Positions 23,000-29,799 of a stretch of DNA of 64,000 nt are shown piece by piece. Positions within the stretch are counted from its first letter, which is position 1. Each line of letters starts with the position of its first letter. Made by a program: the position numbers and the translations under genes. Source of the stretch: a bacterium (lineage in GTDB: Bacteria > UBA10199 > 2-02-FULL-50-16 > JAJFLM01); NCBI GenBank assembly GCA_965216315.1, contig CBDCFN010000016.1:2080001-2144000 (forward strand). Direction: 5' to 3'. The notes beneath the pieces were generated by a model. The model searched no databases. It saw nothing but the letters and a program-made list of their open reading frames with translations, and was not told the DNA's origin.

Positions 23000-24592
23000 T
23001 CAGCTCATATATAGCCTGTCGCGCATTTTATCCAGGATTTTCGGTATTTGCAGCGTCAATTCCTGATCGGCATCAATGCTCAAGACATCGGCTATTTCGC
23101 AACCTTCAATAGCCGCGTACGCTGCAAGTTGTTGCGCCAATATCCTCTCGTCGGCCTCAGAGGCATCCACCCCTCCTTGAGCTCGCCGTTCAACGCGCGC
23201 ACGCAAAGTTGCTGGTGACGCCCGTATATCCAAAATGAGGAACGGGACGGAGCACTTGAGTGCCACGGCACGACAGAGCGCCCTTTGCTCGGCCTTCAAA
23301 AAGGTCCCATCAATGATCACGGGGTAACCATTCTCGAGACAAGCCGCTGCCCGTGTCGCAAGATATTCATAAAGCCATTCACTGGTCTCGGCACTATACA
23401 TTTTATCTTTGAGCGGGCCCTCGCTTGATTCATCCACCGCAAGCTTAAAACGCCGTTTTCGCTCAACATCGGTGCGCAGGCCAATCGCGCTAAGCTCATC
23501 ACGCGCGGCACGCGCCAGCAGTGACTTTCCGGAACCCGAGAGACCGCGAGTAATACATAGAAAGAGCGGCGGTTGTGCGCAGGTTTGTAGCGCCAATTGC
23601 AGATACGATGATAACTCTTCAATAAGTGAATCATGCTCCGAACCGTTCTCGCCTGCCTGCTGGAGCCGAATCGCAGCAATCTTGGCCCGCACCAGTGCCC
23701 GATAGACCCGGTAGAAGCGAAGCACACTCAAGCCTTCATAGTCCCCGGTCCATTCGAGATAATGATTGAGCAGCCGACTCGCATAGGTGGGTGCCTGCCT
23801 GCCGGCCAGGCAGGCCTGTCTATCTTCCAAGTCCATAATGGCAAAGGCCAGCTCATTCATCACATCGATCCAGCGGAGGCGCTCACTGAATTCAATGGCA
23901 TCGAAGAGCACGGGAGTCTCATCGAGCAGAATCATATTGGCTAGATGCGCATCTCCATGGCATTCACGCACAAAGCCGCTCTGCTTGCGCCGCTGAAACA
24001 CCGCTTTTTTGCGGTTAAATTCGTCACGGCACCATTGCTCGATCTGGCTGAGCTGTTCGATCTGTGTTTGATCAAACAGGAGAGGTCTCAACTGCAAAAA
24101 ACATTCTTCGACCGGTTTGATAAGCACCTCCGGGTCCCCAAACTCTTTATCTTCAGTGGCCACGGCACACTTCGAATGAAAATCGGCCAGCCGCCGCGCC
24201 AACTGATCAATGTGTTCCGGAGATAGCTCCCCTCGCTCCAGCACGTGATCGAGCCGCGTCGCCTGGTCAAAGCGCTTCATTTTGACCGCATACTCAATCG
24301 CCGGGCCAGGGCCATCGATTACAGGGTCTGCTTCGGTACCTGTGATTTTAACGACCGCTAAATAAAGTTGCGGGGCTAAGCGACGATTGAGTCGTAGTTC
24401 TTCCTGACAATAGAAGTGACGATCTTCTAATTTTCTGAAATCAAGAAAACCCAGATCGAGCGGCTTCTTGATCTTATAGACGTAATCTCCAGCCAAGAGC
24501 ACCCACGAGATGTGGGTCTCCATCAATTCCACCCGCTCGACCGGGTGGTCATAACGGCTCGGATCCTGAAGTGCCTGAATCAGTAGATCCAT
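23000..24592 (-). CDS. Aminoglycoside-phosphotransferase-like / AAA_33 P-loop kinase fusion (Rv2004c-like)
   Basis: ETHISW, YKIKKP, ECHGDAHLAN, DAIEF; GLSGSGKS, RTDVERK, DASEA. Confidence 0.88.
   Translation of the reverse strand: MDLLIQALQDPSRYDHPVERVELMETHISWVLLAGDYVYKIKKPLDLGFLDFRKLEDRHFYCQEELRLNRRLAPQLYLAVVKITGTEADPVIDGPGPAIEYAVKMKRFDQATRLDHVLERGELSPEHIDQLARRLADFHSKCAVATEDKEFGDPEVLIKPVEECFLQLRPLLFDQTQIEQLSQIEQWCRDEFNRKKAVFQRRKQSGFVRECHGDAHLANMILLDETPVLFDAIEFSERLRWIDVMNELAFAIMDLEDRQACLAGRQAPTYASRLLNHYLEWTGDYEGLSVLRFYRVYRALVRAKIAAIRLQQAGENGSEHDSLIEELSSYLQLALQTCAQPPLFLCITRGLSGSGKSLLARAARDELSAIGLRTDVERKRRFKLAVDESSEGPLKDKMYSAETSEWLYEYLATRAAACLENGYPVIIDGTFLKAEQRALCRAVALKCSVPFLILDIRASPATLRARVERRAQGGVDASEADERILAQQLAAYAAIEGCEIADVLSIDADQELTLQIPKILDKMRDRLYMS
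23793..23815. repeat. Short palindromic element inserted in frame in the kinase gene
   Basis: GCCTGCCTG-CCGGC-CAGGCAGGC; adds CLAGRQA (21 nt) with CAGGC repeated at both ends. Confidence 0.7.
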
Positions 24593-24659
24593 ATTTTATG
24601 GCATAACAAATGTATTAAATTGTGTACACGGCTATACGAAAAATGCTTCGCTAAGCATT

Positions 24660-24706
24660 GGGGGCGCAGCGCCTGCCTAACGGCGAGACAGGCTACGCCC
24701 CCCTAC
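24660..24706. repeat. REP-like hairpin containing a second copy of the 21-bp palindromic element
   Basis: GGGGGCGCAGC..GCTACGCCCCCCTAC arms enclosing GCCTGCCT-AACGGCG-AGACAGGC (24671-24693). Confidence 0.6.
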
Positions 24707-24712
24707 GCTCGT

Positions 24713-24835
24713 CTACTGACAGCACTTCTCAAGCGCATCGGCCAGAGATCGCAGGGCCGAGGCAAATGAGTCGGCGCATTGGCAATCCTTGCAGCAATCA
24801 CAACAACTGCAACAGGATTTCTTTTCTTCACTCAT
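24713..24835 (-). CDS. Cys-rich 40-aa microprotein (metallothionein-like; not in ORF track)
   Basis: MSEEKKSCCSCCDCCKDCQCADSFASALRSLADALEKCCQ; AGGAGG SD 8 nt upstream; start overlaps arsR stop. Confidence 0.75.
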   Translation of the reverse strand: MSEEKKSCCSCCDCCKDCQCADSFASALRSLADALEKCCQ

Positions 24836-25187
24836 CGTTTGATCCTCCTATTTCTTTTGAGTCTTCCAGACAGGACTCCAGACAATCCGCAATCGAACGC
24901 AAGGTCTGCGCGACCTTCGAGGCGTTCACCGTGTAACGAACTTCTTTCCCCTGCTTCTTCGCCGCGAGGATGCCCGCCGCTTTGAGCTTGGCGAGATGGC
25001 GCGACACAACCGAAAGATCGACGTTGCAACAACCGGCCATCGCTTGGACCGTCTGACCCTCCTTTTGCTGACTTAAGCCCGTGAGCAGGGCAATCCGATT
25101 GGGGTCACAGAGGGCCTTGAAGAACTCTGGCTCCATCAATTCCCCCAGATCCGGGCAGCAGGCATCTTTTGGCTCTTTTTTGCTCAT
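24828..25187 (-). CDS. ArsR/SmtB-family metalloregulator; start revised to ATG 25187
   Basis: FFKALCDPNRIALL, LSVVSRHLAKLKAAGIL, GKEVRY; Cys clusters ACCP, GCCN, DCLESC. Confidence 0.9.
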   Translation of the reverse strand: MSKKEPKDACCPDLGELMEPEFFKALCDPNRIALLTGLSQQKEGQTVQAMAGCCNVDLSVVSRHLAKLKAAGILAAKKQGKEVRYTVNASKVAQTLRSIADCLESCLEDSKEIGGSNDE

Positions 25188-25223
25188 TTGCACAAATATG
25201 CAATTATAAACTCGGTTTGTCAA
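25188..25223 (-). promoter_or_regulatory. sigma70 promoter with overlapping ArsR operator, probably leaderless
   Basis: TTGACA-N17-CATATT on minus strand, 7 nt before ATG; palindrome TTGCA-N6-TGCAA at 25188-25203. Confidence 0.6.
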
Positions 25224-25346: not shown

Positions 25347-27557
25347 ATGAACGTAGGACTCACTTCAACATTGTCACTGAATAACGCCCTGCTCGCCTCG
25401 GCGAGTACGGCCGTCAATACCGGTACGCAAACGGCTTTTTATACGAGCTCCCCCCAATTGAGCCTGGGGGAAGAAAGCACCACCCTCTACGCCGCGGATC
25501 CCCAGTTTGAGCATTTAGGAAAAAGATCGATGTGGGATAATGCCGGCCTGGACCGTCGTATCCACTCGGCCCACCGCAACCTCGTCACGATGGCCACCGC
25601 CCCGCTCTACTTGGATACTCAGCTCAAACACGCCACGCGCGATCATCAAGGCAAACGCATCGGTCTGCAGATCCAGGGAGACGTATCGGACACACCGAGT
25701 GATTATGAATCCGAATCCCTGGAGACGGTCTTGGATAACCACCCCAAACTCCCGGTCGAAGGATTTGATCGCGGCAATCACAGTAGCGGAAACTTCTTCG
25801 GCGTCTTCAACCTGAGAAGTCGCCTTAATAAATGGGTGCGCAAATGGATCTTTGGCGATCGTGTAGACACCTTTGAAGAACAATTGAATGAAGCCGCAGG
25901 CGGTGCCAAACATGTCCTGACCCCCAAGAAGACCTTTGAGACGATGCATCGGATTCTTCATCGCCATCGCGATGATCGCGGCCAAGTTGTAGAGCGGATC
26001 AATACCGCGGTCCAAAAGGCGGATTACAATGGTTATCGACTCAACAATGGTGAACAGGGACAATTTACCGCAACATCGCTGAATGAAAATTTTCATACCT
26101 TTTGGCACAGTTCTAAAGGCACTAAACTGGCAACACCAAGTGAATCACCTTACTGGGACTGCCTGGTTAACTATCAAGTGGCTGATCTCGATGCGGGCGA
26201 ACGGGGGACTAAGGTCACTCCCTTTTACATCCAAGCGTCTCAAGATGCGCGCTTCAAATTAGAAGACGGACGGGAAGTTCCCGTCTATTCGATCAGTATC
26301 GATACCAGTGACACGGACAACCCCTTTGTGGTTTTTCCCGGCATGTCGGCACTGCAGGTTCGGCTGATCGAGACCTTTATCGATTACGTCCGCCAACACC
26401 AACCGGAGGCCCGCTTTAAGCTCAGCGCCCATTTTCCCGCCGCGCGTATCATCCAACAACCGAAAGGAATTCTGGGTAGAGTATGGAGTTGGATTAATCC
26501 CTTCGTCGATCGTAAAGTCCGGCGCGCCTTCAAGCGCCTGCTCAGCCGCGAAGAGATCATTTTCTTCAATAGCGCCCACACCCACGACCGCGAAGTGAAT
26601 GACCTTACCAAAAGACTCGGGCTTAAACGCAAGACCCCACTGCCTGAAGTAGTGGTTCCTTCGCTGACCGATTATGAACCCGTCCAACCCAAAGGTCAGG
26701 AGCGTCCCCAGGATGGCCGCGCCCTCGCGATTGAGCGTATCTGGACCGAAAAAAATCCGGACGGCACACATGAACTCAAAGTCGATGTAGACTTTAAGGG
26801 TGTCGATCCCGAAGACCTGAGAGACAGGGGACTGACTTCGGAGGTTGAGGCGGCCTTAGCTCCTTATCGCCAGGACGGCAAACATAGTTATCAGCGTACC
26901 CTCGATACGATGTCGGAAAAATTCGGCCGTCCGCGCTGGCTGGGCTTTGGGGGTCAGTTTGGACGCCAGCTCTGGAAAAATTTCTTTAAAAAACGCGCTA
27001 AAAGTGTGTTTCGTTTTATTCATACCGCCGTACTCCCACTCCCCCTCCTTTGGGTTCCTTTCTTTTGGAAACGCCTAAAAAATTATTGGTGGGAACACCC
27101 GTCCATCATCCAAGACATCAAGGATTCCTTAACGACGGTGGCCACGGAACAAATGTTCAATGAGGCGGAGCACCTCCTTCCCTTTCTCCACTCACTGACA
27201 CGCTTTGTCGAAAAAGATGTAGAGGCGGGTCACATCGCCTCTGAAGCGATACTCTTAGGCTTGAGAGAAATTTCACGAGATCTGAATGCTCAATTAGAAG
27301 CAAGGCGTTACACCTTTAACGCCGCCGTTGCAGCAGGCGAGGATGCGGCACGCCTGGCCACGTTTAACGATTTACTTGAAACCTCCAGAGTCTTTCGCCT
27401 GCCTTCATTGCTCGTCGGCCTCAAAGAGGATAGTGAAGCCCGCGCCTTTGCAGTGATGGTCGGCCTCGAGGCATCCGAGGTTGAATACAAATTTCAAGGG
27501 TTGAAACCTACGACTGTACCGAACGATGCACTGAATTTTACTGTACCTCTAGGATAA
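25347..27557 (+). CDS. Large divergent calcineurin-like metallophosphoesterase, paralog 1
   Basis: Ordered motifs ADPQFEH, GDVSD, RGNH, SAH, AHTH; aligns along its length with the downstream ORF. Confidence 0.65.
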   Translation: MNVGLTSTLSLNNALLASASTAVNTGTQTAFYTSSPQLSLGEESTTLYAADPQFEHLGKRSMWDNAGLDRRIHSAHRNLVTMATAPLYLDTQLKHATRDHQGKRIGLQIQGDVSDTPSDYESESLETVLDNHPKLPVEGFDRGNHSSGNFFGVFNLRSRLNKWVRKWIFGDRVDTFEEQLNEAAGGAKHVLTPKKTFETMHRILHRHRDDRGQVVERINTAVQKADYNGYRLNNGEQGQFTATSLNENFHTFWHSSKGTKLATPSESPYWDCLVNYQVADLDAGERGTKVTPFYIQASQDARFKLEDGREVPVYSISIDTSDTDNPFVVFPGMSALQVRLIETFIDYVRQHQPEARFKLSAHFPAARIIQQPKGILGRVWSWINPFVDRKVRRAFKRLLSREEIIFFNSAHTHDREVNDLTKRLGLKRKTPLPEVVVPSLTDYEPVQPKGQERPQDGRALAIERIWTEKNPDGTHELKVDVDFKGVDPEDLRDRGLTSEVEAALAPYRQDGKHSYQRTLDTMSEKFGRPRWLGFGGQFGRQLWKNFFKKRAKSVFRFIHTAVLPLPLLWVPFFWKRLKNYWWEHPSIIQDIKDSLTTVATEQMFNEAEHLLPFLHSLTRFVEKDVEAGHIASEAILLGLREISRDLNAQLEARRYTFNAAVAAGEDAARLATFNDLLETSRVFRLPSLLVGLKEDSEARAFAVMVGLEASEVEYKFQGLKPTTVPNDALNFTVPLG

Positions 27558-27570
27558 GGCGCTTACTGAT

Positions 27571-29799
27571 ATGATCGGCGGACTCGCACAATCACTGCAC
27601 GCATCGAGCACTGCCAGCCTGATGCTCGCAAGCTGCATCATTCAACCGGGAGAGGTCTGCAGAACGATATACGTTTCCGATACCCAGTTGCAGCATCTCG
27701 GGCGCCGACCGTTTACGGATAACCCGCTCATCAAACGACTTTCTCCCCCCGCCGACCGCAATGTCATCGCCACTCAAACAGCAGACGTCTTTATTGACGA
27801 GCTACTCCGCCAAACCTGTGCAAAATTGCAACAAGAGGAACAAGCGACAGCCGAACGGGCACCGACTCACCTCCCTTCAGCAGAACCTCATGATGAATCA
27901 CACAAAATTAAGTCCTCACGAATCAATACGATTGTGCTCGGTGACATGGCGGACACGCCGATTAAAAGTGAATACCTCCGCTTTGAACAACTGATGAATG
28001 GACACCCCCTAGATGTCCGAGTCGTCGTACGCGGCAATCACAGCAGTGCCAACGCCTTTGGCGTCGTCAATCTCCAAAGTCGTAAATACCGGAAATTGCG
28101 CGGTACGCGTGGACTCCGCCAATACTCACTGCGTGCCGAGGTCGAAGAGGTTGCCGGCAAACCGAAGTATTTACTCTCAGGCCATGGAACATTTAATGGG
28201 ATGCGCCGCTTGATCCATGACAACGAACAAAGCGCGCCGAGCCTAAATGATATCAACGTCAGTATCGCCGCAGCGGACTATGACGGCTATGCTCTCCCCG
28301 GAAGTGCAGATAAAATTCCCTTTGATGAGGCCCATCGCGCTCAGAACTTCACCACCTTCTGGAAACCCGTTATCAGACAAGACCCGGCTAAAAATGAACA
28401 GCCCAGCTGGGAGTGCCTCGTTAACTGTCAGGAAATCGACCGCGAAGAGGCTGATCGAGAAACACCTGTAACCCCTTTCTATATTCAGGCTACGGAACAA
28501 TCGCGCTTTCATTTAAAGGACGGTTCCGAGATCCCGGTCTATACGATCAGTATGGATGGTCTCGACAACAATAATTTGCTGCCTGCTATCAACGCGGAGA
28601 TGTCGGAATTGCAAATTCGCGCCATTGAAACCTTTATGGACCAGATGCTGCAGCAAAATCCGCAAGCCCGTTTCAAATTAGCCTGCCACTATTCGAGTCA
28701 GGAAATGCTCAAATCACCCTGGATCCGACGTTGGCGCGGCCGGCGCATGCGCAAGGCCTTGCGCCGCCTGCTCAGCCGCGAAGAAGTCATTCTCTATACC
28801 TATGGTCATACCCATGAGCGCGAGGTCGTCGACCTCAACAAAGAACTCAAACTCAAGCGTAAAACTCCGTTGATGCAGGTGAATGTCCCGTCCTTAATCG
28901 ACTATCACCCGGTGAAAGATGAACAAGCAAAAGTCGAGGCCTACCCCTACCGGGATGCGCGCGCGCTAATGATCGAAAGAACGTACGTCGAACAAAATGA
29001 TGACGGTGACGCTGAGTTAAAAATCGACCTTCAATTCAATGGCATTAATTGGGATGACATGAAAGACGAGGGACTCACGGACAAAGTTAAAGAAGCCCTC
29101 AAAGAGTATCGCGAAAACTACGGCTATGCGCGCTCCGTCGAAACCATGCACCTCTTACGCAAGCAACACTTCTGGGGTTGGATTCATAGTCATTGGAAGC
29201 GCGGGGGTGAGGCTATCTGGGGTTCATTAAGCGACTTGATCAAGCTTCCCGTAAACGCCTTTAACAAATACTTACGCGGTACTTACGACGGCCCCCTGTT
29301 CGCCTACTGGAATGACGTTTCATTCTTCAAATATATCATCGACAACTTCACTGTCGTCTCAACGGTCAAGATGTTCAGTGAGGCCCTTTATCTGAGACAC
29401 TTCATCAAATCGTTGGAAACCCTCATCGAGGATGATAACGATCCCGAAGAACTCGCGATCGCAGCGCAACTCAAAAGCATGCGTATCGCCCTAACCGATG
29501 AGTACGCCGACCGCCGCCATGATTTTGAAGCCGCCCTCAACAGCGGCGAGCGCCCCTCGGAGCTGCGCCAATACAATGATCTCTTTGAACGCACCCGCAC
29601 CTACGAGCTCTGTAAGCTGCTCCTCCAACTCAAACCGGGCGGCCAGGCCCGCGCCTTCGCCGTGATTGCCGGCATCCAGGCCTCCCGAGAAGAATTTGAA
29701 TATCATAAGAAGAAACCGACCGAGATACCCAACAAGATCCCGACGATCTCCATCCCGATCGGACGGACCCAGGCGAGCCAACAGGCCGTCGGTGGCTAG
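27571..29799 (+). CDS. Large divergent calcineurin-like metallophosphoesterase, paralog 2
   Basis: SDTQLQH, GDMAD, RGNH, ACH, GHTH; shares VTPFYIQA, RLLSREE, LKRKTPL, ARAFAV with paralog 1. Confidence 0.65.
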   Translation: MIGGLAQSLHASSTASLMLASCIIQPGEVCRTIYVSDTQLQHLGRRPFTDNPLIKRLSPPADRNVIATQTADVFIDELLRQTCAKLQQEEQATAERAPTHLPSAEPHDESHKIKSSRINTIVLGDMADTPIKSEYLRFEQLMNGHPLDVRVVVRGNHSSANAFGVVNLQSRKYRKLRGTRGLRQYSLRAEVEEVAGKPKYLLSGHGTFNGMRRLIHDNEQSAPSLNDINVSIAAADYDGYALPGSADKIPFDEAHRAQNFTTFWKPVIRQDPAKNEQPSWECLVNCQEIDREEADRETPVTPFYIQATEQSRFHLKDGSEIPVYTISMDGLDNNNLLPAINAEMSELQIRAIETFMDQMLQQNPQARFKLACHYSSQEMLKSPWIRRWRGRRMRKALRRLLSREEVILYTYGHTHEREVVDLNKELKLKRKTPLMQVNVPSLIDYHPVKDEQAKVEAYPYRDARALMIERTYVEQNDDGDAELKIDLQFNGINWDDMKDEGLTDKVKEALKEYRENYGYARSVETMHLLRKQHFWGWIHSHWKRGGEAIWGSLSDLIKLPVNAFNKYLRGTYDGPLFAYWNDVSFFKYIIDNFTVVSTVKMFSEALYLRHFIKSLETLIEDDNDPEELAIAAQLKSMRIALTDEYADRRHDFEAALNSGERPSELRQYNDLFERTRTYELCKLLLQLKPGGQARAFAVIAGIQASREEFEYHKKKPTEIPNKIPTISIPIGRTQASQQAVGG

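Follow-up and report, generated by a model that had tools for sequence, protein, structure and literature searches.

Small proteins encoded beside bacterial repressors

Repressors of the ArsR/SmtB family control adjacent genes for bacterial metallothioneins, as in the SmtB-SmtA system of Synechococcus and the BxmR-BmtA system. The ars operon protein ArsD is an arsenic metallochaperone with vicinal Cys pairs, in which a Cys12-Cys13-Cys18 site binds As(III) and passes it to ArsA. A different relationship is found in Bacillus subtilis, where the small antagonist SinI shares the helical oligomerization domain of the repressor SinR and pairs with SinR as a heterodimer; eukaryotes have 'microProteins,' for example Id and LITTLE ZIPPER.

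The locus described here lies in a window of 64,000 nucleotides (the whole stretch of bacterial DNA that was analyzed) and consists of an arsR gene followed by an ORF for a Cys-rich microprotein. As in SmtB-SmtA and BxmR-BmtA, a sensor of the ArsR/SmtB family adjoins a Cys-rich protein of very small size that it presumably controls, and the logic expected from SmtB-SmtA is one of inducible sequestration that feeds back on the sensor. The microprotein resembles a metallothionein in being very small and in having a high fraction of Cys, arranged in CC and CxC runs. However, it has no sequence relation to SmtA or BmtA (no Pfam match at E ≤ 1) and falls outside the Metallothio_Pro family, it has 40 residues rather than about 55, and it holds a copy of the α5 helix and terminal Cys pair (α5-CC) of its repressor. 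Its gene is co-directional with that of the repressor and translationally coupled behind it, instead of being divergent as for SmtB-SmtA, and the context of its clade is arsenic (arsM, arsC, aquaporin) and not zinc.

The likeness to ArsD, another small protein with vicinal Cys pairs, lies in the CC-x4-C arrangement of C8, C9, and C14 and in the position of the gene, which in some genomes falls between arsR and arsenic-handling genes. The microprotein is, however, only one-third of the size of ArsD and has no arsA nearby; it matches no ArsD profile (no family in Pfam or NCBIfam) and is modeled as a single helix with a disordered cluster rather than as a thioredoxin-like fold. With SinI it shares a very small size, a gene beside that of a repressor, and a copy of the repressor's dimerization helix, but there is no SinI match in Pfam (no family at E ≤ 1) and the poly-Cys module has no SinI counterpart, such that the comparison concerns a possible mode of action and not membership. 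Finally, the end of the peptide helix matches the consensus with which α5 ends in the ArsR clade of the window; in AfArsR (type-2) and SpArsR (MAs(III)-selective), according to PMC11868830, this position is a vicinal Cys pair that binds As(III)/MAs(III). The difference is that the module of the microprotein is detached from any DNA-binding domain and joined to a poly-Cys cluster. A Cys-rich small ORF behind arsR is not mentioned in the available parts of PMC11868830 and bioRxiv 10.1101/2022.10.17.512643, and none of the listings from full-text literature searches describes such an ArsR-coupled peptide.

Organization of the arsR-microprotein locus

The features of the locus are as follows, in coordinates of the window.

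24653..24710, minus strand: G+C-rich hairpin immediately behind the stop codon of the microprotein gene, then a short hairpin with a U run
24713..24835, minus strand: microprotein gene, 40 codons plus stop, conserved at nine loci
24719..24775, minus strand: amphipathic helix ending in CC, residues 21-39, with a pattern homologous to the ArsR α5-CC module
24776..24814, minus strand: poly-Cys cluster, residues 8-20, CCSCCDCCKDCQC, 8 Cys in 13 residues, predicted to be disordered in the apo form (pLDDT about 50)
24828..25187, minus strand: arsR, encoding a 119-residue ArsR/SmtB metalloregulator (NF033788, 59 bits against a cut-off of 55; HTH_20)
24844..24849, minus strand: Shine-Dalgarno sequence AGGAGG of the microprotein gene, within the 3' end of arsR, 8-nt spacer to the ATG
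24864..24923, minus strand: ArsR residues 89-108 (α5 helix and terminal Cys), the stretch that the microprotein resembles
25188..25203, no strand assigned: candidate operator TTGCATATTTGTGCAA, a perfect TTGCA-N6-TGCAA palindrome that overlaps both the -10 box and the start of transcription
25195..25223, minus strand: promoter-like site with -35 TTGACA (25218-25223), a 17-nt spacer, and -10 CATATT (25195-25200)

The minus-strand ORF at 24713-24835 encodes MSEEKKSCCSCCDCCKDCQCADSFASALRSLADALEKCCQ, in which 10 of the 40 residues, one-quarter, are Cys. Its ATG (24833-24835) overlaps the TGA stop codon of arsR (24828-24830), with the two frames sharing 8 nt. The sequence-only reading of the window, which had drawn attention to a 40-residue ORF with 10 Cys, an AGGAGG Shine-Dalgarno sequence, and a start overlapping the arsR stop, is borne out on every one of these points. 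The ORF is a real, unannotated gene, predicted to be translated together with that of an arsenic-type repressor. No family was returned by scans of the microprotein against Pfam (E ≤ 1) or NCBIfam, the exact peptide is absent from the protein collections searched, the protein atlas gave no usable match, and the only name that the sources give to its relatives is "hypothetical protein." A word-index search for homologues of the single peptide found none at near lengths; at longer lengths it gave 16 candidates, all of which fail E ≤ 0.01, and the lack of a fused ArsR-peptide form among them is weak evidence. An AlphaFold2 model has a helix at residues 19-39 (pLDDT 77-85), with values of about 50 for the Cys cluster, and the microprotein is best read as two modules, a disordered poly-Cys cluster and an ArsR-derived helix-CC.

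The HTH_20 match of the window's ArsR scores 37.3 against a cut-off of 27, and the closest solved relative is the zinc sensor SmtB (1r1t, E = 3.5e-7). In the alignment with SmtB, this ArsR lacks the His/Asp/Glu ligands of SmtB α5. Its Cys residues form one pair near the N terminus (residues 10-11) and another in the DNA-binding region (residues 53-54), followed by C102 and C106 at the end of α5; C53-C54 and C106 are invariant in a four-member ArsR alignment. Cys ligands of the As(III) type, which are expected as a pair in α3, at the C-terminal end of α5, or in both places, are present. The α5 end reads ExCC in the 12 displayed rows of 61 orthologous ArsR segments, and the vicinal pair of these relatives is replaced in the window by C102 and C106.

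The start of arsR is likely the ATG at 25187, giving a protein of 119 residues. This codon directly follows the operator and has no Shine-Dalgarno sequence, as is also the case in two relatives (L009 and L007). The right edge of 25223 proposed earlier does not hold, because the TTG found there is part of the -35 box TTGACA and not an arsR start. The promoter-like site agrees with the consensus at 10 of 12 positions (one site found, with 0.6 expected in shuffles), and since its -10 box ends 7 nt before the ATG, the arsR mRNA is probably leaderless. The TTGCA-N6-TGCAA operator suggested from the sequence was located at 25188-25203; the 2.96-Mb genome has no second exact copy of the palindrome and one site elsewhere with two mismatches, and a related sequence sits immediately before the arsR ATG in L009 and L007.

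At the other end of the unit, the hairpin region has a predicted stability of -50.9 kcal/mol over a 126-nt stretch (z = -4.3), which none of 200 shuffles equaled. A simple terminator scan found no terminator behind the microprotein gene, and the hairpins probably mark the end of a bicistronic transcript. Beyond them, on the same strand, is a gene for a 530-residue APH/AAA_33 kinase-like protein. The G+C content of 0.48-0.55 across 21-29 kb gives no compositional sign of recent transfer. The sequencing runs listed for this DNA comprise four of DNA, all from one study, and none of RNA.

Resemblance to the α5 helix of ArsR

An earlier claim that the C-terminal half of the peptide aligns without gaps to the C terminus of ArsR stands up to testing: residues 21-40 of the peptide and 89-108 of ArsR, a stretch that itself aligns to SmtB α5, share 10 of 20 identities, with a BLOSUM62 score of 51 that was reached by none of 300 shuffles of the peptide. 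Hydrophobic positions, read directly, follow a 4-3-4-3 spacing in both helices, and the peptide helix ends in LRxLADALEKCC where the α5 consensus of the ArsR clade ends in LRSIADAIExCC. A profile was built from 61 ArsR α5-CC segments, all of them from loci without the microprotein. It recognizes the helix of six of the ten family members in the correct register, each with a score reached by 0 of 1000 shuffles (29.6 bits for the peptide of the window); L007 is borderline (6 of 1000), and the signal is not significant in the other three (L008, L080, and L199). The comparisons indicate that the similarity between the microprotein and the ArsR C terminus is real and general across lineages.

The sequence-only reading had further proposed that the peptide was born by partial duplication of arsR. 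As a recent event this is rejected, since the DNA of the two helices is identical at only 29 of 60 bases, with agreement at 6 of the 20 third positions, and the proposal survives solely for an ancient duplication. Cognate tracking was also not found: the summed scores of peptides with their own ArsR partners were reached by 1572 of 5000 permutations, and the peptides are closer to the consensus of the ArsR family than to their own partner. This permutation test gives no support to co-evolution with the cognate ArsR or to repeated independent births. The similarity is old: third positions are random and no tracking of the cognate ArsR is seen in the peptides, and the persistence of protein similarity in the face of random third positions is a signature of selection on the protein.

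Conservation and genomic context

Synteny with arsR was tested and is conserved: an arsR gene, a Shine-Dalgarno sequence, and a coupled ORF for a Cys-rich protein (5-10 Cys in 35-52 residues) are found at nine loci in two phyla, with the frame, start/stop arrangement, Cys cluster, and helix retained. The Shine-Dalgarno sequence lies 5-9 nt before the peptide ATG at all nine loci with DNA context. At seven of them the start and the arsR stop overlap by 4-11 nt, and at the other two they are separated by a gap of 10-14 nt. Unbiased six-frame profile searches gave four strong matches (E = 6e-17 to 2e-7) among 93 genomes of the window's phylum, with two further weak matches near the 0.01 threshold (E about 0.008-0.01) at loci outside the nine accepted, and six matches at E ≤ 0.001 among 301 genomes of the second phylum. 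Every one of the nine inspected and accepted matches is directly behind an arsR. A match in G233 (L198) was discarded for an internal stop and the absence of an arsR nearby.

Selection could be measured in one sister pair (L025 and L030), in which the peptide gene is under purifying selection, with dN of 0.072 and dS of 0.57 (dN/dS about 0.13) and an in-frame indel of three codons; the adjacent arsR genes give dN of 0.066 and dS of 0.70.

The family is tiny, amounting to eight clusters among 5.8 billion, and a search of 1.84 billion representatives with a profile from a four-member alignment gave only two matches. A metagenome scan with ArsR as the query found no close orthologue of the window locus (best identity 56%), and no new peptide gene appeared in the 26 of 80 metagenome ArsR loci scanned, the remaining 54 being mostly weaker matches of 30-45% identity. 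A script flagged 13 small Cys-containing ORFs behind ArsR orthologues, and five of these (L031, L055, L061, L074, and L088) were judged by eye to be out-of-frame artefacts of GC-rich DNA and discarded; these five are rich in Arg and Gly, have no Lys/Glu-rich N terminus, and begin either far within arsR or over 100 nt from it. Three ArsR-linked peptides in Alphaproteobacteria have the Cys and no α5-like helix.

The earlier observation that no resistance gene follows the peptide gene holds in the window, as it does in G051 and G010, where no arsenic gene is found after it, but other relatives differ. The gene order in G045 runs arsR, peptide, MIP aquaporin, and LMW-PTP arsenate reductase, and in L025 and L030 a class-I methyltransferase lies behind the peptide gene. 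The G045 cassette directly follows the 3' end of a large ORF for a multi-pass membrane protein that, by eye, resembles an RND-type heavy-metal efflux pump. Elsewhere the ArsR clade is found directly upstream of arsM, arsC, or hgcA. Behind orthologous ArsRs that lack the peptide, 9 of 20 inspected downstream ORFs are ArsM-like by their N-terminal motif, one of which was confirmed (NF008823, 292 bits against a cut-off of 263), and HgcA was confirmed beside one clade member (NF040863, 429 bits).

Possible roles of the microprotein

We consider the microprotein a probable trap or carrier, small and inducible, for arsenite and other ions of similar affinity for thiols. For the reading as a whole, in which arsR and the peptide gene form an autoregulated operon with a product that, in the manner of a metallothionein or ArsD, binds As(III) or soft metals, we estimate a probability of around one-half; we infer the ligand from the ArsR clade and its neighbors only. 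ArsR would occupy the palindrome over the -10 box and transcription start until As(III), MAs(III), or some other ion that seeks thiols caused it to leave the DNA, upon which a probably leaderless arsR message would be transcribed. Translation of the microprotein would follow, through the strong Shine-Dalgarno sequence inside the 3' end of arsR or by re-initiation at the overlapping stop and start codons. The product would combine a flexible N-terminal cluster of eight Cys with an amphipathic helix-CC, an old copy of the ArsR α5-CC sensor module, and its 10 thiols might provide AsS3 sites for as many as about three As(III) ions, or bind soft metals. It may act as an inducible trap or buffer, and as a carrier where arsM, aquaporin, or arsC follow, and the resulting drop in free As(III) would act back on its own repressor, in the way that SmtA affects SmtB. 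The Cys composition and the arsenic-gene contexts of the relatives fit the metal(loid)-binding role originally suggested. No match to acr3 or arsB was found in the window's genome (98% completeness), such that a sequestering peptide would not be redundant. Against the trap or carrier count the small size of the family, the window, G051, and G010, where no arsenic gene follows, and the fact that a simple thiol sponge does not need the α5-like helix that has been retained. The ArsR-linked Cys-only peptides of Alphaproteobacteria do without the helix, and its conservation therefore hints at an additional function in protein contact, for which the trap or carrier does not account.

Such a contact is the essence of another explanation, that the peptide is an anti-repressor or co-sensor that acts by helix mimicry, like SinI on SinR. 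Its helix would pack on ArsR α5, or bridge the ArsR Cys residues through a shared As(III), and thereby weaken dimerization or DNA binding or tune the threshold of the sensor, to which the Cys cluster would add a dependence on metal(loid). Recognition of six of ten family helices by the α5-CC profile and the common 4-3-4-3 spacing speak for this, and because the peptide gene is always beside arsR and translationally coupled to it, both products are made at one site. Moreover, in L080 the ArsR has no terminal CC and the peptide has a helix-CC, and in the window the peptide retains the CC where ArsR has a single Cys in place of the pair of its relatives. The absence of cognate tracking and of a significant helix signal in L008, L080, and L199 nevertheless speak against mimicry. 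The dimers of ArsR/SmtB proteins are obligate and tight, which would make a single 19-residue helix a weak competitor, and the strong Shine-Dalgarno sequence of the peptide, set against a probably leaderless arsR, suggests an excess of peptide, as would suit an effector more than a stoichiometric partner. A complex prediction for the ArsR dimer with the microprotein scored 0.02 against a mark of 0.32 and, being without controls, carries no weight on either side of the question of binding. We regard mimicry, with docking of the peptide onto ArsR, as possible but unlikely. In its most developed form, which we hold to be equally doubtful, the microprotein would be a metal(loid)-gated micro-repressor mimic, that is, an ancient detached α5-CC copy with a poly-Cys antenna, made from the same mRNA as ArsR, that sets or resets the switch by pairing with ArsR α5 or by sharing As(III) with the terminal Cys of ArsR. 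If true, this would be, to our knowledge, the first SinI-like or microProtein-type antagonist of a bacterial metal sensor.

Alternatively, the peptide might be no arsenic device but a metallothionein that serves soft metals in general (Cu(I), Cd, Zn, or Hg); it would then be functionally analogous to SmtA or MymT, under an ArsR that senses a metal cation. A Cys content of 25% in CC and CxC runs is typical of metallothioneins, the closest solved relative of the ArsR is a zinc sensor, the ORF neighboring the G045 cassette resembles (by eye) an RND-type heavy-metal efflux pump, and some members of the clade lie beside the mercury-methylation gene hgcA. We find this improbable, however, in view of the predominant coupling of the ArsR clade to arsM and arsC, the missing SmtB-type α5 ligands, and a C-terminal ExCC motif that, according to PMC11868830, is of the As(III)/MAs(III)-sensing type seen in AfArsR and SpArsR. 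There would be no function to explain if the ORF were a chance occurrence in the 3' flank of arsR, or the decaying remnant of a tandem arsR duplication or of a lost downstream gene, and the exact peptide is indeed in no protein collection, the window locus has no close orthologue that was found, and no arsenic gene lies downstream. Conservation of the frame, Shine-Dalgarno sequence, start/stop overlap, Cys cluster, and helix at nine loci in two phyla, together with a dN/dS of about 0.13 and an in-frame indel in one close pair and with protein similarity that persists while third positions are random, makes this a very remote prospect.

Concluding remarks

The microprotein adds to the arsenic and soft-metal regulons a gene family that annotation pipelines drop for its size. 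The re-use of the terminal helix and Cys pair of a sensor as a free-standing peptide is a concrete example, open to testing, of how modules evolve in the ArsR/SmtB family. If As(III) is trapped by the peptide, this would be a minimal natural arsenic-binding tag, perhaps useful for biosensing or bioremediation, and would offer one way to cope with arsenite for a genome without a match to acr3 or arsB. If it acts on ArsR instead, it would constitute a new layer of regulation for metalloregulators.

Organization of the arsR-microprotein locus

The elements of the locus are the following.

24828–25187, minus strand: arsR, an ArsR/SmtB regulator (NF033788, 59 bits versus a cut-off of 55; Pfam HTH_20)
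24835 to 24713, minus strand: microprotein ORF of 40 codons, encoding MSEEKKSCCSCCDCCKDCQCADSFASALRSLADALEKCCQ, with 10 Cys
24844–24849, minus strand: AGGAGG SD of the microprotein ORF, 8 nt 5' of its ATG
25218–25223 and 25195–25200, upstream of arsR: sigma-70-like promoter, TTGACA and CATATT with a 17-nt spacer
25188–25203: perfect palindrome TTGCATATTTGTGCAA, an operator candidate overlapping the promoter

The SD and the start/stop overlap with arsR described in the sequence-only reading are both present, the microprotein ATG overlapping the arsR TGA by 8 nt (ATGAGTGA). The arsR start proposed there, a TTG at 25223, is in fact part of the -35 box of the promoter. The ATG at 25187 lies 7 nt past the -10 box and has no SD, in contrast to the near-perfect SD of the microprotein. 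An operator-like sequence followed by ATG, again with no SD at arsR, recurs in the relatives' loci L009 and L007. From these features together we infer that the arsR message is leaderless. Across the 2.96-Mb genome the palindrome occurs in exact form only here, with one further site at two mismatches.

Directly 3' of the microprotein stop is a G+C-rich hairpin (126-nt stretch, -50.9 kcal/mol, z = -4.3, none of 200 shuffles as stable), at which a simple terminator scan reported no terminator. Directly past it, 120 nt from the microprotein ORF, the next same-strand gene (23000–24592, minus strand) encodes a 530-aa APH/AAA_33 kinase-like protein, a fusion of aminoglycoside-phosphotransferase-like and AAA_33 kinase domains that is by annotation unrelated to metal handling. 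Divergent from arsR are two tandem paralogous ORFs (25347–27557 and 27571–29799, plus strand; 736 and 742 aa), both with a 'GNHSS' motif; the first starts 144 nt beyond the operator candidate and matches no Pfam family at E <= 1.

Conservation and selection

Judged by its conservation, the small ORF is a gene. Behind the arsR genes of its three nearest homologues within the phylum of the window (genomes G010, G045, and G051; ArsR 48–51% identical) there is in each case an SD and then a coupled, Cys-rich ORF of 40–52 codons. An ArsR alignment yielded 80 species-genome loci, 77 of them with an ArsR gene not running off the locus, behind which a script flagged 13 small Cys-containing ORFs. Eight were accepted, comprising the records of G051 (L045) and G045 (L057), three new loci (L025, L030, and L080), and three Cys-only loci (L063, L065, and L069); the other five (L031, L055, L061, L074, and L088) were dropped by eye as out-of-frame artefacts. 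A six-frame profile search for the peptide, independent of ArsR, recovered the four known loci from 93 genomes of the window's phylum (E 6e-17 to 2e-7), together with two weak matches near the 0.01 threshold (E about 0.008–0.01). From 301 genomes of a second phylum came six matches at E <= 0.001, five of them directly behind arsR (genomes G093, G094, G095, G353, and G208); the sixth, in G233, was set aside, having an internal stop and no arsR beside it. At all nine loci with DNA context, a GGAG-type SD precedes the peptide ATG by 5–9 nt, and this ATG overlaps the arsR stop by 4–11 nt at seven and starts 10–14 nt after it at two.

No close orthologue of the window's own locus was found among 60 relatives or in a metagenome scan for its ArsR (best identity 56%); the 26 metagenome loci scanned, out of 80, held no peptide gene. 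The selection figures refer to one close pair, L025 and L030, whose peptide genes show 19 nucleotide differences across 48 aligned codons (dN 0.072, dS 0.57) and a 3-codon in-frame indel; their arsR genes give dN 0.066 and dS 0.70. Conserved synteny and, for this one pair, dN/dS, the checks proposed with the sequence-only reading, both speak for a real gene, and it is very improbable that the ORF is no gene at all.

The three Cys-only loci, from Emcibacteraceae/Kordiimonadaceae MAGs, carry a second kind of ArsR-linked micro-ORF, of 29–46 codons. Its products are acidic, with 8–10 Cys in CxC/CC runs and without the helix (one has 10 Cys in 29 aa), give no match to the microprotein-family profile, and look like a minimal metallothionein. 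The micro-ORFs of L065 and L069 begin 13 nt after the arsR stop; that of L063 has a script-called, putative GTG start 40 nt before it.

Similarity to ArsR helix alpha5 and its origin

The ungapped match of the peptide's C-terminal half to the ArsR C terminus, noticed from the DNA alone, holds: peptide residues 21–40 and ArsR residues 89–108, which align to alpha5 of SmtB (PDB 1r1t), are identical at 10 of 20 positions (BLOSUM62 score 51, reached by none of 300 shuffles). To avoid circularity, a profile of the alpha5-CC module, the C-terminal helix with its terminal Cys pair, was built from 61 ArsR orthologue segments, none from peptide-bearing loci and with the window's ArsR left out, and ten family peptides were given best-domain scores against it, with 1000 shuffles each. 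Six matched clearly, with no shuffle reaching the score: the window's peptide (29.6 bits), those of loci L030 (18.2), L025 (18.1), and L009 (10.5), family member P0002 (5.1), and that of L197 (4.6). These share one register, peptide L-R on ArsR L96-R97, and do not represent six independent lineages, L025 and L030 being sisters, as are L009 and P0002. The remaining peptides scored 2.4 (L007; 6/1000 shuffles), 2.0 (L199; 26/1000), 0.7 (L080, on CC only; 27/1000), and -1.1 bits (L008; 164/1000). An AlphaFold2 model from an 8-row alignment has a helix at 19–39 (pLDDT 77–85) and a low-confidence Cys cluster (about 50).

This resemblance is confined to the protein. Between the peptide-helix and arsR DNA, 29 of 60 bases agree, among them 6 of the 20 third positions, and 3 of the 10 identical residues use the same codon. 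Nor are peptides closer to their own ArsR than to other ArsRs, the cognate score sum of 202 being reached by 1572 of 5000 permutations. From this we read the module as a probable single old capture of ArsR alpha5-CC, retained by selection, rather than as a recent duplication or a series of repeated births; the earlier idea of birth by partial arsR duplication could hold only for an ancient event. Many clade ArsRs (L016–L084) carry extra Cys clusters after alpha5-CC, with tails ...GACHGKCC, ...ECCGSNC, ...SCCCVPT, and ...GCCAKGCCA, and a tail of this kind may be the source of the microprotein's poly-Cys part.

Gene context and likely ligand

Classed by N-terminal motif, 20 ORFs downstream of peptide-less ArsR orthologues comprise 9 ArsM-like, 1 other methyltransferase, 3–4 HgcA-like, 3 LMW-PTP ArsC-like, and 3 unclear; one ArsM (NF008823, 292 bits versus a cut-off of 263) and one HgcA (NF040863, 429.5 versus 275) were confirmed. 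In G045 the peptide gene lies between arsR and genes for a MIP aquaporin and an LMW-PTP arsenate-reductase-like protein, both assigned by Pfam matches above cut-off, with NCBIfam arsC models below theirs. A class-I methyltransferase follows the peptide gene at L025 and L030, a response regulator in G051, a LigB-type dioxygenase in G353, and the hairpin in the window. The ExCC end of alpha5 in the clade's ArsRs is the counterpart of the C-terminal sites that AfArsR and SpArsR are described as having for As(III)/MAs(III) (PMC11868830).

The window's genome (98% complete) gave no acr3 or arsB match. About 280 kb from the arsR-microprotein locus it encodes the radical-SAM protein ArsS (TIGR04167, 440 bits versus 300); an LMWPc gene and an ArsC/Spx-family gene are also present. 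At locus L182 (G000:C16:2382514–2386056), the ArsS gene and, immediately behind it, one for an ArsM-like methyltransferase of 349 aa that scores below all ArsM cut-offs form an arsenosugar-type pair, adjoined by glycosyltransferase-like ORFs.

Proposed function and relation to known systems

We propose, with a probability of about 0.5, that the microprotein is an ArsR-gated, translationally coupled, thiol-rich peptide and a candidate binder of As(III) or soft metals. Its proposed role is that of a trap or buffer or, at loci where genes for arsenic enzymes or channels come next, of a carrier, and it would in turn act back on its repressor, as SmtA does on SmtB. That it is instead a metallothionein for metal cations seems unlikely. 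A pure sponge function leaves the conserved alpha5-like helix unexplained, and for this reason two other roles are considered: self-association, which would arrange the terminal Cys pairs, and a putative contact with ArsR in the manner of SinI, the antagonist sharing the helical oligomerisation domain of its repressor SinR; we regard the latter as unlikely.

Pfam and NCBIfam hold no family for the peptide, and our literature search found no description of one like it. An enlarged profile retrieved only 8 clusters among 5.8 billion; family members are named 'hypothetical protein' or are absent from protein collections, as is the window's ORF. In its general theme, a tiny Cys-rich protein encoded next to an ArsR/SmtB sensor, the locus resembles the known SmtB-SmtA system. 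What is new here is the detached alpha5-CC module together with the conserved stop/start coupling.
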